Positions 5,564 to 29,462 of a DNA stretch of 49,763 nt are shown one piece after another; within the stretch, counting starts at the first letter, position 1, and every line of letters begins with the position of its first letter. The position numbers and the translations under genes were made by a program. Under the pieces are notes generated by a model. That model saw only the letters and a program-made list of their open reading frames with translations, was not told the DNA's origin and searched no databases. Source of the DNA: Candidatus Doudnabacteria bacterium (lineage in GTDB: Bacteria; Patescibacteriota; Doudnabacteria; UBA920); assembly GCA_003151625.1 (NCBI GenBank), contig PLYC01000023.1, forward strand, positions 416 through 50,178, given 5' to 3'.

Positions 5564-7621
5564 TTACTTAATTAATTCCAAAAGCTTTTTCTCATCTAAA
5601 ATTTCCACTCCCAATTTTATCGCTTTATCGTATTTAGATCCGGGTTCGTCTCCAACAACAACATATGATGTTAATCTGGAAACGCTTTCGGATATTTTAC
5701 CCCCCAGAGTTTTTATTTTGGCTTTGGCTTCGTCGCGGGACATAGATTTTAATGTGCCGGTAATGACAAATGTTTTGCCGGTTAATTTTCCCGCTTTTTT
5801 TTGCTCGTGATGAATTTTGATACCGTTCTTTATCAGTTTATTAATAAACTTGATATTTCCCTTATGGCGGAAATAGTCATAAACGCTTTGAGCCACCACA
5901 GGCCCGATATTTTCTATAAAATTAATGTCATCTAAAGGCGCCGCCATTAATTTATCCAACGACCCAAAATGCTGCGCCAGGTCTTCGGCCGTCTGCTCCC
6001 CCACGTGCAAGATCCCCAAGCTGTAAATAAACCGCGACAGGCTGACATTCTTATGTTGGCCGATGGATTCTATAATATTTTCCGCCGATTTTTCGCCAAA
6101 TCTCTCAAGGCCTTTTATATCATCCGCTTTCAAAGAAAAAATATCAGCGGCATCGCTAATTAGCCCCTCTTTCTGAAAACGATCTAAAATTTTGGGGCCG
6201 ATTTCGTAAATTTCAAGCACACTGACAAAGTGCTGCATAAACCGGCGGTTCTTGGCCGGGCATTTGGGGTTGGTACAATAAAAGGCAACGGATGAATTTA
6301 TCCCTGTAGAGGAGGGTTTCAAATCCTCCCCTACACCGCGGCGTTCAACCGTCGCGCCGCATACCGGGCAATTGCTTGGGACCTTAACCTTTTTTTCCTT
6401 CCCAGTCCGCATCTTGGGCAAAACCTCAACGACCTCGGGAATAACATCCCCTGCTTTCTGTATAACTACCGTGTCTCCCACCCTCACATCCAGCCGGTTT
6501 ATCTGGTCTATATTATGCAGTGTAGCCTTCCCAATAATGGAACCTGCCACCAAAGTCGGCTCAAAAATCGCCAAGGGCGTTAGCACCCCGGTTCGTCCAA
6601 CGTTGAATTTTATTTCCTTAATTACAGTTGTGGCTTTTTCCGCAGGATATTTATAGGCCGCCATATAGCGGGGTGCTTTACCAATTATGCCTAGGCGGTT
6701 CTGTAAAGCCAAATCGTCTACGGAAATAACCACGCCGTCTGTGCCATAGGCAAAATCCGGCCTGAGCTTTTCTATTTCGCGGACAAATTTTTCCACTTCG
6801 GTCAAATTCCTACATACCCTTTCATGATTATCCACCTTAAAACCAAATTCCCGAAGCAAACGGTGTTTGTCGGAATGTTTTTCTGCTTTAATCTTTAATC
6901 TTAAATCTTTAATCTGAGTCACATCCCACGCAAAAAAATCCAACTTTCTTTCCGCGGTTAAATTAGAATCAAGCTGTCTTAAACTTCCGGCCGCGGCATT
7001 ACGGGTATTGGCCAAAAAGGGTTTGCCTTCTTTTTCATATTTGGCATTCAAATCTCGTAAAACTTTTTTGCTCATTATGCCTTCGCCGCGAACTTCCAAA
7101 AACTCCGGATACGGGGCGCGAAGCTTTAAGGGAATGGACTGAATGGTTTTTAAATTTTGGGTTATATCCTCGCCAATATATCCGTCACCGCGGGTAGAAC
7201 CGCGAACGAACTTTCCATTCTCATAAATTAAAGATACCGAAAGGCCGTCCAATTTTAATTCGCAAAAATATTCAACCGCGGCATTTTCCTGAACCAGCTT
7301 TTTAATCCGCTTCTCCCAAGCCTCAAGCTCTTGCTGTGAAAATACGTCATTTAACGAAAGCATTCGCACGTCATGCTTAACTTTTACGAACTTGTCCAAA
7401 GGCTTGCCCGCAACCCGGTTATTTAGCGAAAATTCGTCCCTAAACTCCGGGTACTTTTCTTCCAAACCCTTTAACTCGCGCTGAAGAGACTCATAAATAT
7501 CGTCCGTTACTTTTGGGTCGTCCAAAACGTGGTAACGGTAGCGCAAATCTTCAATCTGCTTGCTTAAATTTTCTATTCTTTTTTTTGCGTCTACTTTATC
7601 CACCTCGTTAAAAGTTATCAT
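5564..7621 (-). CDS. ligA: NAD-dependent DNA ligase
   Basis: ELKLDG adenylation motif, [28 protein letters not shown]4 zinc finger, HhH, BRCT (GKTFVITG). Confidence 0.98.
6305..6335. repeat. GTAG...CTAC REP-like hairpin in frame within the ligA zinc finger
   Basis: TGTAGAGGAGGGTTT-C-AAATCCTCCCCTACA (15-bp arms, 2 mismatches). Confidence 0.75.
6886..6915 (-). repeat. 30-bp heptamer-periodic tract in ligA, identical to 28504-28533 in guaA
   Basis: AGATTAAAGATTTAAGATTAAAGATTAAAG, encoding IKDLRLKIK. Confidence 0.9.
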
Positions 7622-7690
7622 AAATAACCATATTTACTCAATAATTATAGCATTTTTTGGTTTTTTTGATAATTACCAGTTGTAGTTAGG

Positions 7691-7736
7691 TTTACCCCCA
7701 CACCAATTTGTTCAGACAAATTGGTGTGGGGGTTTA
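7691..7736. repeat. family A palindrome, copy 2
   Basis: ACCCCCACACCAATTTGT-TCAG-ACAAATTGGTGTGGGGGT with TTTA at both ends. Confidence 0.85.
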
Positions 7737-7828
7737 TCCACAATGCAAGGCTCTCCAATTTGTGGTAGAATAGAGTTAAAGTGAGTGTTAAAATGATAAA
7801 ATTTAAAAAATAAACAGGACTTTATAGA

Positions 7829-8221
7829 ATGCCTTTCCGCAACAAAAAATTTGAACTTTCACCCAGGCTCAAACTCGGCATTGGCAGAGGCTATTCTCAA
7901 AACCAAATACTCAAATTTTCCGCTATTGTTTGTTTAACGTTAGCCCTTGTGCTAACTGCCAATGCTTTTAGACTGGTGCTTAAAGATAAAAGCCACGCGG
8001 ATAGCAACTCACAGAACCCCCAAGTTTTGGGTGCCACGGACGTTAAACAGCCAAATAGCCAAAGCGGGATGCAGTTTACAGCCTACAAGGTTTTGCAAGG
8101 AGATACTCTGTTTAACATCAGCCAAAAATTCAATATTGACTGGACCACGCTGGCAACCCTAAATAACCTTAAAAGTCCCTTTACCCTCAAACTCGGACAG
8201 ACTATCAACATTCCAAAATAA
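7829..8221 (+). CDS. membrane-anchored LysM domain protein
   Basis: One TM segment, then YKVLQGDTLFNISQKFNIDWTTLATLNNL...LKLGQTINIP. Confidence 0.9.
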   Translation: MPFRNKKFELSPRLKLGIGRGYSQNQILKFSAIVCLTLALVLTANAFRLVLKDKSHADSNSQNPQVLGATDVKQPNSQSGMQFTAYKVLQGDTLFNISQKFNIDWTTLATLNNLKSPFTLKLGQTINIPK

Positions 8222-27623: not shown

Positions 27624-27797
27624 TATCCTAAAATTAAGCGTATGTTTTGGCTATTTCCGTCCGAACATTGTTCCATAAGCTCCACCAAATAAAAAATATC
27701 CCGTGCATAGGATATTTTTTATTTGTCCCGAGCGAGAAGTCAGACGACGAGTCGAGAAGCAAAAAACCTTCTGTTAAGCCCACCTGATTGAACCGTT

Positions 27798-27826
27798 TTG
27801 ATTATCTCCTAAATTTTCTATATAAT
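27798..27826 (+). promoter_or_regulatory. guaA promoter (leaderless spacing)
   Basis: TTGATT-17-TATAAT, 7 nt before the ATG. Confidence 0.65.
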
Positions 27827-27833
27827 GTAACAA

Positions 27834-29462
27834 ATGCTCCAAACTTTCAAAAAAGCTATGGCTGATGCCTTGGCGGAAATTCGCGAGGAAAAAAAGATTC
27901 GCTCCACGACCGAGCTTTTTTTGTTGTTTAGTATGGGCAGCCAGTTTGACCATTTAATTAAGCAAAAGCTGGACGCTTTGGGGGTTTTTTGTTTGGTGGC
28001 AGATCCTGCTTCCGTGACGGCTGATGATGTTCTGATGATAAAACCAACAGGCATAATTCTTTCCGGCGGACCGGCTTCTGCTTACGAAAACCCGCCCTTT
28101 GACGGCAAAATTTTTGATTTAGGCGTTCCGCTTTTAGGCATTTGCCTGGGCTACCAAATGTGGGCGCATCATATTGGAGTGCCGGTCACGTCATCGGATA
28201 AGCGCGAATTTGGCACTCATACATTTACCATTACAAAACCATCGGCCTTATTAAAAAATCTTCCGAAAAAATCCAAGGTCCTGGAAAGCCACGGAGATAA
28301 AATTTACGTGGATGATAAATTAAATATTTTTGGTACCACAGATAACGCTCCGGCCGCGGCCGGCAACCATAAGCACTTATGGGGCGTGCAATTTCACCCC
28401 GAAGTCACCGAAACCGAATATGGGGAAAAAATTTACGAAAATTTCTGTTTTGGGATTTGCGGCGCCAAAGACAAATTTCCGGCTTCCAAAGTAGCAGATA
28501 AGAAGATTAAAGATTTAAGATTAAAGATTAAAGATAAAAAAGTATTATTGGCTCTTTCAGGTGGCACGGATTCTTCCATTGTCGCCTACCTATTAAAACG
28601 TTCCCTTGAAGATTCCCATCAAGAATTCCCGCATGGGAATCTTCAAGGGAATCAAATCCTGGGAGTCTACATAAAAGGCATTGACCGGCCTGATGATGAG
28701 TCTAATGTAATTAAATATTTCGGGGATGAAAGTTGGATAAAAGTTAAAATCGTGGACGCGACGGACAAATTCCTGACCGCTCTAGCGGGTAAAATTTCTA
28801 TGAAAGACAAACGCCTGGCTATGCGCGGCGTATATAAAGAAATTTTGGAAAGCGAGGCCAAAACTTTTGGCGCAGATTTTATTGCCCAGGGCACGCTCTA
28901 CACAGATGTTTCCGAAACCGGCGGCGGCTACGACTCGGGTTCCAAAAAAGCCCAAATAAAAATTCACCACAATGTGGGTTTAAAATTCAGCCTGCCGGAA
29001 ATTCAACCCCTTATAGACTGTGTTAAAGACACCGGACGCAACATCGGACGCTCCATTGGAGTTCCCGATGAATTGTTAATCCGCCATCCCTTCCCGGGTC
29101 CGGGGCTGGTCGTGCGGATAGAAGGCGAGGTAAATAAAGAAAAACTGATAATCGCGAGAAAAATTGACGGAATTTATATAAAAGAGCTAAAAAAGTGGGG
29201 CTTTTACCAAACCGTCTGGCAGGCCGGCGCTGTGGTAACATCGTCAACAACAACCTGCACCAAAGGCGATGACGCGAGTGATGGGCACGTAATCGCGTTA
29301 TGGGCCGTCTGGAGCGTCAACGGCTTCACCGCCCGCGCGGCGGAACTGCCCTATGATTTTCTTAAACACGTTTCCCAGCGTATGACCAACGAAATCCGCG
29401 AAGTTGGCGCCGTTGTTTATCGCATATCTGATAAACCGCCGGTCACTATTGAATGGGGATAA
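27834..29462 (+). CDS. guaA: GMP synthase (glutamine-hydrolysing)
   Basis: GSQF, ILSGGPAS, LGICLG, SHGD, GVQFHPEV, LSGGTDS, QGTLYTD, RHPFPGPGL, KPPVTIEW. Confidence 0.96.
   Translation: MLQTFKKAMADALAEIREEKKIRSTTELFLLFSMGSQFDHLIKQKLDALGVFCLVADPASVTADDVLMIKPTGIILSGGPASAYENPPFDGKIFDLGVPLLGICLGYQMWAHHIGVPVTSSDKREFGTHTFTITKPSALLKNLPKKSKVLESHGDKIYVDDKLNIFGTTDNAPAAAGNHKHLWGVQFHPEVTETEYGEKIYENFCFGICGAKDKFPASKVADKKIKDLRLKIKDKKVLLALSGGTDSSIVAYLLKRSLEDSHQEFPHGNLQGNQILGVYIKGIDRPDDESNVIKYFGDESWIKVKIVDATDKFLTALAGKISMKDKRLAMRGVYKEILESEAKTFGADFIAQGTLYTDVSETGGGYDSGSKKAQIKIHHNVGLKFSLPEIQPLIDCVKDTGRNIGRSIGVPDELLIRHPFPGPGLVVRIEGEVNKEKLIIARKIDGIYIKELKKWGFYQTVWQAGAVVTSSTTTCTKGDDASDGHVIALWAVWSVNGFTARAAELPYDFLKHVSQRMTNEIREVGAVVYRISDKPPVTIEWG
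28504..28533 (+). repeat. 30-bp tract identical to ligA 6886-6915 (minus)
   Basis: AGATTAAAGATTTAAGATTAAAGATTAAAG. Confidence 0.9.
28601..28651. repeat. 51-bp hairpin in frame within guaA
   Basis: TTCCCTTGAAGATTCCCAT-13 nt-ATGGGAATCTTCAAGGGAA, perfect 19-bp arms. Confidence 0.9.

Follow-up and report, generated by a model that had tools for sequence, protein, structure and literature searches.

How does one and the same stretch of 30 nucleotides (nt) come to lie, letter for letter, in two unrelated housekeeping genes of a single bacterial contig? The question is raised by a segment of Candidatus Doudnabacteria DNA (assembly GCA_003151625.1, contig PLYC01000023.1, positions 416 to 50,178 of the forward strand; hereafter the window, that is, the whole stretch of 49,763 nt that was analysed), in which ligA, encoding the NAD-dependent DNA ligase, and guaA, encoding the glutamine-hydrolysing GMP synthase, share such a tract. 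The tract is a heptanucleotide simple-sequence repeat (SSR) of the form (AAGATTN)n, in which the unit ends in A by default. Of the explanations weighed below, we rank first, with somewhat more confidence for it than against it, that such tracts arise by repeat-driven mutation filtered by selection and that no dedicated machinery is involved.

A heptanucleotide repeat in three genes

The exact 30-mer is found twice in the window, once in ligA (6886-6915, minus strand) and once in guaA (28504-28533, plus strand), and no other match was detected in the window when up to three mismatches were allowed; none of 100 dinucleotide-preserving shuffles contained two or more matches (mean 0.00). Both genes are intact, ligA (5564-7621, minus strand) encoding a protein of 685 residues that matches PDB 2owo with an E value of 1.9e-158, and guaA (27834-29462, plus strand) a protein of 542 residues as assessed from its orthologues and PDB 7sbc. 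The two tracts, at codons 237-245 of ligA and 225-233 of guaA, use the same codons, ATT AAA GAT TTA AGA TTA AAG ATT AAA, and thus encode the same peptide, IKDLRLKIK, as an initial annotation made from the sequence alone had pointed out.

That annotation had also noticed a shorter relative of the tract in the leader of a PilX-like pseudopilin gene (8444-9820, minus strand), which was assigned through Pfam and its orthologues, carries a C-terminal DUF4082 domain and forms part of a type IV pilus cluster. This third array indeed exists as 21 nt, AAGATTA AAGATTA AAGATTC (9746-9726, minus strand), which cover codons 26-32 and read RLKIKDS(R), and it is accompanied in the same leader by a partial array that had gone unnoticed, AGGATTC AAGATTC A (9802-9788, minus strand), which reads RIQDS and lies 41 nt upstream of it. 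Tandem Repeats Finder (TRF) assigns a period of 7 to the ligA, guaA and PilX-like sites, with 90-100% matches within the arrays, and reports 4.3 units in ligA, 5.3 in guaA, where the array (28503-28539, plus strand) extends past the shared 30-mer, and 2.9 in the PilX-like gene (9727-9746).

The presence of head-to-tail copies of one unit of 5-11 nt, which is one of the properties that define long SSRs, is thus documented by TRF at three sites. Another, a frequency above that expected from composition, is apparent from the 30-mer shuffles, from a 14-mer count and from an excess of repeats at lag 7. With up to two mismatches, the 14-mer AAGATTAAAGATTA has 10 matches in the window (1.15 expected, and 4 in the most extreme shuffle), nine of which fall within the ligA, guaA and PilX-like tracts. 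Of the near-perfect lag repeats, four fall at lag 7, three of them inside genes and one between genes, and a single segment was found at each of the lags 4, 5 and 6, with none in the window at lags 8-14; period 7 accounts for 8 of the 52 TRF rows in the window.

Reading frame, stop codons and the identity of the two tracts

The arithmetic of a seven-nucleotide unit determines much of what can be read from such an array. All frames of a heptamer array give one cyclic peptide because 7 equals 1 modulo 3, and three heptamers make 21 nt, so that the array passes through all three phases in turn. It is therefore true that the two tracts share sense and frame, as the initial annotation had stressed, but this agreement is uninformative. 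When the unit-final bases are written x, y and z, as in AAG ATT xAA GAT TyA AGA TTz, an AAGATTN array reads K-I-[KQE]-D-[LS]-R-[LF], a T at x creates a stop codon, and so does an A (TAA) or a G (TGA) at y. In a pure AAGATTA array a TAA recurs every 21 nt whichever frame is read, and because of this TAA an array can sit in an open reading frame (ORF) only if each third unit ends in T or C. The four unit-final bases of the 30-mer allow 256 combinations, 72 of which avoid stop codons. The encoded peptide has a period of seven residues (a heptad), with its hydrophobic residues spaced as in an amphipathic helix.

These constraints bear directly on the principal argument that had been advanced for copying between the two genes, namely that independent slippage would be unlikely to produce the same internal TTTAAG variant twice. 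The TTT variant of the 30-mer occupies position y, where T (Leu) and C (Ser) are the only bases that leave the frame open, and the PilX-like array has C (Ser), the other permitted base. The argument fails because the variant sits exactly where a stop codon would fall. Since A is the default in all three tracts and only the choice between T and C stays free, we estimate that two A-default arrays in overlapping register would be identical with a probability of about one quarter, and the identity between ligA and guaA follows largely from the avoidance of stop codons.

The signal itself sits at the DNA level. Given the codon usage of 46 ORFs of the window, the probability that two independent encodings of IKDLRLKIK are identical is 2.3e-4, a value on which codon bias was rejected as the source of the DNA identity. 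In these ORFs the share of AGA among Arg codons is 19%, that of TTA among Leu codons 28% and that of AAG among Lys codons 24%; within the tract the rare AGA is used and the alternation of AAA and AAG keeps the exact phase of the heptamer. The natural IEDLR near the N-terminus of LigA, unlike the tract, is encoded with TTG CGC.

The GuaA helix

The GuaA tract was placed in an alignment of the window protein with its 120 best relatives (65-91% identical by BLASTP). The segment shows no gap against the 120 orthologues and none against PDB 7sbc, in which it forms the helix directly before the PP-loop motif SGGxDS, and this alignment confirms the earlier suggestion that the repeat replaces the helix and does not lengthen it. 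The consensus of the segment is KKKIxDLKKQIGxKK, and the repeat peptide retains its conserved residues, these being K (121 of 121 rows), I (104 of 121), L (120 of 121) and a second I (108 of 121). The Leu codon at the variant position y is the one for the conserved helix Leu, present in 120 of 121 rows, and the heptad period of the array matches the helix.

The state L[RK]L[KQ]I[KE] occurs in 9 of the 121 rows (the window, P0006, P0007, P0014, P0030, P0034, P0040, P0043 and P0061), and five GuaA records besides that of the window contain DLRLKIK (P0006, P0014, P0030, P0040 and P0061). On a FastTree phylogeny built without the helix columns the state needs 7 changes, of which at least 6 are forced by well-supported branches (mean of shuffled states, 8.8), and 7 changes are again needed on an IQ-TREE phylogeny of 62 rows, comprising the window and P0004-P0064 and leaving out the 59 rows P0065-P0123. 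A single clade was rejected on the same 62 rows by the approximately unbiased (AU) test (log-likelihood difference 366.4, p-AU 6.9e-92), for a group that had been set by the trait but after the first tree had been seen. The RLKIK state is polyphyletic and arose or moved at least six times in the GuaA tree. The proto-repeat AAG ATT NAA GAT TTA is complete when E, K or Q stands at position x, and this is the case in 6 of the 9 rows with the state vs 27 of the 112 rows without it (Fisher p 0.012). In addition, the GuaA protein P0018 carries another heptamer-coded peptide, ISNLKSQI, in the same helix register.

The closest relative of the window protein, P0004, has an ordinary KIDELQSQIGN at the position of the tract and no array peptide. 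Between the window protein (P0002) and P0004, 47 of the 542 aligned positions differ, 7 of them among the 11 positions of the tract vs 40 among the 531 positions elsewhere (Fisher 6e-6). The differences cluster at residues 9-26, 226-234 and 256-274, and the remainder is about 97% identical. The guaA tract of the window looks like a single recent patch, and it also looks younger than the tracts in ligA and the PilX-like gene, because a relative represented by P0124 and P0244 has the latter two and P0004 is without the guaA tract. As a separate observation, the third of these segments (256-274) corresponds to a lineage-specific insert after the PP-loop helix, and in six other GuaA orthologues this insert is the exact translation of a 7- or 8-nt repeat.

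The LigA loop and the pseudopilin leader

In LigA the tract lies between FFAWD(I/V)xQ and HS(D/E)KHxLLRxLGFKV, in a hypervariable and indel-rich loop whose sequence and length differ in practically all of the 121 aligned rows. The window loop is three residues longer than that of Escherichia coli LigA (PDB 2owo), and the LigA protein P0124, which is 97% identical, carries the same tract peptide at the same length. Loop peptides of many other LigA proteins are likewise exact translations of short tandem repeats, with SGQWAVG corresponding to (AGTGGGC)3, EIGKLGNW to (GAAATTGG)3 and KDSKIQRF to (AAAGATTC)3. A second repeat hot spot of LigA was observed in the HhH-BRCT linker (alignment columns about 811-813) of 8 of the 121 orthologues, with peptides such as YKLQATSYKL and YKLQTTNYKL, and related peptides are found in the leaders of the PilX-like proteins P0287, P0291 and P0298.

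The leader of the PilX-like gene is organised differently in different relatives. In the window a G+C-rich segment of 41 nt (9747-9787, minus strand), encoding PQSLVGVARRMTVP, divides the leader array in two, and the orthologue P0246 has the same interrupted layout. The array peptide of P0252, KIQDLRLKIKDSR, is uninterrupted, and P0244, which is 92% identical to the window protein, has the tract. Within the same pilus cluster, a 14-nt unit composed of two related heptamers is repeated 2.4 times at 12160-12193 (minus strand) in the ORF 11437-12198, where it encodes the prepilin leader MLNLKSKTLNLKP directly before the N-terminal methylation motif. The leaders of pilins and pseudopilins appear to attract such arrays generally, L042 and L125 from other Patescibacteria being further cases. 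The cluster itself appears complete by Pfam and occupies 8444-24261, between ligA and a tRNA pair. It comprises the PilX-like gene, three genes with an N-terminal methylation motif, and genes for a prepilin peptidase, a PilC-like protein, PilT-like and PilB-like ATPases and PilM; a PilO match is weak and below the Pfam cut-off.

Repeat-coded peptides in orthologues and other genomes

A script generated all peptides that are the translation of three perfect units of 7 or 8 nt (11,256 and 42,480 stop-free peptides), and the protein sets were searched for exact occurrences. Such peptides are present in 26 of the 121 LigA proteins, with 18 occurrences in the tract loop, 8 in the HhH-BRCT linker and 2 at a conserved site, the last of which are probably due to chance; two proteins match at both loop and linker. 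Shuffled LigA controls gave 1-2 matching proteins per shuffle at k=7 and 0-1 at k=8. Among the 121 GuaA proteins seven match, one in the helix and six in the variable loop that follows the PP-loop helix and in which window GuaA has a 13-residue insert relative to 7sbc (controls, 1-2 proteins per shuffle at k=7 and 0 at k=8). The PilX-like set contains 13 matching proteins out of 93, 12 of them with the match in the first 30 residues (controls, 0-2 proteins per shuffle for k=7 and k=8 together, a match being counted anywhere). The 46 ORFs of the window, amounting to 13,399 residues, contain no exact repeat-coded peptide of this kind.

Peptides of the AAGATTN type, defined as at least six residues of the cyclic pattern, were detected in 5 of 121 LigA proteins, with the loop as the location in 3 cases, in 7 of 121 GuaA proteins and in 4 of 93 PilX-like proteins, P0252 among them, and in 0-2 proteins of the shuffled sets. 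Different protein families also have units in common, AATTTCC and AAATTTC being found for both LigA and PilX-like proteins and AAATCAGC for both LigA and GuaA. Judging from these protein sequences, the orthologue peptides probably stem from real repeats in the DNA.

A scan of genome contigs for three AAGATTN units returned at least 125 stretches from many phyla, which shows that this unit family is widespread; among the matches listed (at least 125), nine are labelled as Patescibacteria or lineages of the Candidate Phyla Radiation (CPR). Eight chosen array-spanning ORFs were checked with Pfam, with four scoring above the curated cut-off, one (L108) below it and three having no family. The four comprise TsaE in a Saccharibacteria metagenome-assembled genome (MAG; L023) and a Mur ligase in a Bacteroidales MAG (L058), in which the array is in frame inside the domain, and in the latter case inside the catalytic domain, together with a rhomboid protein in Pedobacter (L104), in which the array is N-terminal to the domain, and a protein with a prepilin methylation motif (L125), in which it lies in the leader. 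Open frames as such give no evidence of genes here: 51 of 135 arrays are spanned by at least 100 open codons, but genomes of high GC content hold long chance frames. It was likewise considered whether each genome has a favourite unit of its own; this was rejected as a general rule, a contig of 33,575 nt (P0027, P0131) having three units in its GuaA and LigA.

Relation to known repeat systems

Heptanucleotide repeats have been described as the most abundant class of long SSR in most prokaryotic genomes, and slippage of the polymerase on the approximately 7 nt that it holds has been proposed as their cause (Mrazek 2007, as cited in PMC4679880 and PMC4692102). According to the same sources, coding DNA is poor in repeats whose unit length is not divisible by three, and examples of heptamers include TAACTGA in Beggiatoaceae and GGGAATC-type units in Xanthomonas and Nostoc; an argument from stop codons has been made for TAACTGA too (PMC4679880). 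The window arrays resemble these long SSRs in that heptamers are arranged head to tail in few copies with a lineage-typical unit, and in that inverted pairs and arrays directly upstream of start codons also occur, as at 31011-31113 and 3816-3854 of the window. In contrast to those repeats, which are described as mostly intergenic, the three short arrays of the window lie in frame, two of them in essential genes, and their stop-prone position has been repaired.

A translated heptamer array is known from neuO of E. coli K1, where (AAGACTC)n in the 5' coding region permits full translation only if the number of copies is divisible by three, and where slippage switches the gene on and off, with copy numbers of 3-53 among 64 genomes (PMC13001214). 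The likeness extends to the 7-nt unit inside an ORF, the three phases and the 7-residue repeat described there, and in our own translation the neuO unit gives K-T-Q-D-S-R-L, close to the K-I-Q-D-S-R-F given by AAGATTC. Moreover, the pseudopilin array is likewise situated 5' in a gene with a surface function, capsule modification being the function of neuO in that account and a pilus component being encoded here. It is by this analogy conceivable that the pseudopilin is switched on and off by gain and loss of units. The neuO unit as described is, however, free of stop codons and present in 3-53 copies, whereas those of the window count 3-5 units and could not be read if they consisted of AAGATTA alone; in addition, two of the three window arrays are in the middle of essential enzymes, where switching would be lethal.

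Two other classes of element were rejected. A miniature insertion element of the MITE (miniature inverted-repeat transposable element) or REP (repetitive extragenic palindromic) kind does not agree with the unchanged length of GuaA nor with a direct tandem array without inverted ends. The heptamer families of cyanobacterial short tandemly repeated repetitive (STRR) sequences, which have specific units and are intergenic, were set aside because the host belongs to the Doudnabacteria and the arrays are coding. Among the papers listed in the literature searches, none joins terms for simple-sequence or heptanucleotide repeats with terms for Patescibacteria or CPR, and none was seen to describe such arrays in housekeeping genes.

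How the tracts may have arisen

According to the explanation ranked first, arrays would nucleate where common, AT-rich codons for [KQ]-I-[KE]-D-L already make a proto-repeat (AAG/CAG ATT NAA GAT TTA). They would then spread by repeat-templated mutation, in which the adjacent unit is copied with slippage or misalignment or a short patch is repaired, and recombination between the alleles of related strains may assist this spread. Selection would retain arrays at tolerant sites only, such as the hypervariable surface loop of LigA, the pseudopilin leader and the GuaA helix, the last of which may tolerate an array as its conserved K, I, L and I coincide with positions of the repeat peptide. In this scheme the 30-mer would be identical because two arrays built from one unit converged within the limits set by stop codons and register, and not because it was copied from a master locus. 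As for the initial annotation's proposal of a templated process, what holds of it is that point mutation alone is doubtful, given the encoding probability of 2.3e-4, the 7 of 11 vs 40 of 531 differences and the at least six origins or moves. An origin that is templated or driven by the repeat in some way is likely, but a special system is not indicated.

Several points weigh against this explanation. The repeat encoding of the orthologue peptides is deduced from protein sequences and shuffling controls, and among the matches listed (at least 125) in the scan of genome contigs for AAGATTN there are no Doudnabacteria. The ancestral-type KIDELQSQIGN of P0004 is a poor proto-repeat, and yet 7 of its 11 residues changed in the window lineage. 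The change in guaA looks like one patch event and not like gradual local growth, so that the import of a patch from another allele or array fits at least as well. Slippage shifts length by 7 nt and breaks the frame, and therefore a length-neutral step has to be postulated. Finally, the same unit at three sites is not the rule, because the contig of P0027 and P0131 carries three units.

The alternative ranked second, which we hold to be possible though rather unlikely, is ectopic short-patch copying, in which ligA or some other AAGATTN array would have templated about 30 nt of the guaA helix. The route taken would be a microhomology-primed template switch or gene conversion, either of which would give an exact copy. 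The 30-nt identity is indeed exact, but an identity of this kind is already expected with a probability of roughly one quarter for A-default arrays. The close relative with P0124 (LigA, 97% identical) and P0244 (PilX-like, 92%), two proteins whose contigs have the same length of 26,499, already has the ligA and pilX tracts, P0004 is without the guaA tract, and the differences from P0004 are concentrated in it (7 of 11 vs 40 of 531, Fisher 6e-6), so that the guaA tract looks younger and like a patch, although P0004 and P0124 are not demonstrably from one genome. It is also implausible that point mutation would produce the same four variable residues in at least six lineages. On the other hand, the similarity between the two genes stops at the array, a 38-nt extension being 92% identical through A-rich codons only; ligA alone cannot be the donor, since the guaA array is longer (5.3 units); and a distance of 21.6 kb separates the donor from the recipient, which lies in the opposite orientation.

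Allelic recombination, ranked third and judged a little less probable still, would have an RLKIK helix arise once or a few times and then spread as a patch among the guaA alleles of Doudnabacteria. This would account for a state that is scattered on the GuaA tree between highly conserved flanks (FPASEVA... and KKVLLALSGGTDSS), and for the mosaic of differences between P0002 and P0004 (9-26, 226-234, 256-274); residues 213, 219 and 222 upstream of the tract also differ from P0004, as in a longer imported patch. However, the exact flank of the window, SKVADKKIK, is present in none of the listed orthologues and no donor was identified, partial states exist in the GuaA alignment and resemble stepwise change within lineages, and the same array in ligA and in the pseudopilin gene is left unexplained. 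Recombination would, moreover, be inefficient between alleles that are just 70-80% identical in protein. Local templating, ectopic copying and allelic recombination are three possible routes to the guaA tract that are not mutually exclusive.

A broader reading, which we also regard as improbable but worth stating, is that Doudnabacteria, and perhaps the CPR at large, possess an active and sequence-preferring process that overwrites permissive coding segments again and again with arrays taken from a small common set of 7-8 nt units. Its mechanism might be ectopic conversion of short patches or synthesis during break repair, and the ligA and guaA 30-mers would be one of its direct products; unrelated genes and genomes would then converge on peptides such as DLRLKIK, ISNFKFQ, ISNFQFP, YKLQATS and SKSANQQ.

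A dedicated writing machinery, which would lay down units from a master template by means of a reverse transcriptase (RT) like that of diversity-generating retroelements (DGRs), a primase-polymerase or a nuclease-linked enzyme, is very improbable. It would agree with the recurrence of a limited set of units (AATTTCC, AAATTTC, AAATCAGC) in unrelated genes and genomes, AAATTTC being also the unit of intergenic arrays of the window (31011-31041 and 31092-31113), and the tracts do resemble the products of DGRs in that a short coding segment is, as it were, overwritten from a template without a change in length. The initial annotation had proposed to look for a master locus near an RT or nuclease gene, and none was found among the 44 ORFs of the window that were scanned with Pfam, 14 of which have no Pfam family; no RT or comparable gene is among them either. 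In contrast to a DGR, the two copies of the 30-mer are identical and there is no template and variable pair differing at adenines, and the tracts measure 20-37 nt and not about 100 nt and are located outside C-terminal variable domains; heptamer arrays of this type are, besides, found in many phyla.

Convergence at the protein level combined with codon bias, with IKDLRLKIK selected as an amphipathic helix, can scarcely be credited, for although the peptide preserves the conserved spacing of hydrophobic residues in the GuaA helix and this AT-rich genome uses K, I, D and L often, identical encodings have a probability of 2.3e-4, AAA and AAG alternate in exact heptamer phase with use of the rare AGA, and the LigA site is a loop without conserved sequence. 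An artefact or chimera in the assembly of this metagenome-assembled contig is the least probable of all, as the ligA and guaA ORFs run their full length in colinearity with orthologous proteins and with structures that have been solved, the separate public record P0124 has the same LigA peptide and DLRLKIK recurs in five other GuaA records.

Other features of the window

A 16S rRNA gene, represented by its 3' end (1-227, minus strand), and a 23S rRNA gene, represented by its 5' end (49565-49763, minus strand), occupy the two edges of the window, so that these genes are about 49.3 kb apart with protein-coding genes between them. The usual spacer tRNAs, tRNA-Ile(GAT) (24499-24573) and tRNA-Ala(TGC) (25059-25134), both on the plus strand, are located in the middle of the window and on the strand opposite to the rRNAs.

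Two near-identical perfect palindromes (2178-2216 and 31168-31210) have arms of 19 and 21 nt, respectively, separated by 1 nt. Their common core, CAATGGGCACC, has 4 matches in the window, a number reached in none of 100 shuffles. The first is in frame inside proA, in a 16-residue segment that is missing from the solved ProA structure 8zok (a 16-column gap), and the second is directly 3' of the stop codon of purA and terminator-like.

Further heptamer arrays are intergenic. A perfect (AAGTTGA) array of 5.6 units fills the gap between proB and proC (3816-3854), adjoins the start codon of proC at 3815 and occupies the place expected of the ribosome-binding site, a placement that resembles that of the TAACTGA repeats (PMC4679880). 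Between guaB and purA (31011-31113), (AATTTCA) with 4.4 units and (TTGAAAT) with 3.1 units, which are reverse complements of each other, flank an inverted repeat with 27-nt arms; in other genomes, LigA and PilX-like orthologues contain the translation of this unit, ISNFKFQ.

Conclusions

The tract belongs to a known class of repeat, and what is unusual is that 7-8 nt repeats are found in frame at fixed permissive sites of essential genes and give convergent peptides. Most likely the arrays in essential genes do nothing useful and are tolerated filler that carries a latent risk of frameshift. A new writing system is not needed to explain them unless a complete genome should show otherwise. For the proteins concerned, a test that requires only their sequences is available, since exact back-translation to a period of 7 or 8 nt locates such segments, and the GuaA helix, with at least six changes to the same peptide, offers a site at which mutation bias can be measured against selection. 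Repeats whose units are not multiples of three are usually regarded as intergenic or as on/off switches; if the explanation preferred here, repeat-driven mutation filtered by selection, is true, they would instead be a regular source of loop and helix variation in the essential genes of organisms with small genomes, with a 7-nt unit automatically giving heptad peptides suited to helices, and they would explain the lineage-specific inserts in otherwise conserved proteins of the CPR.

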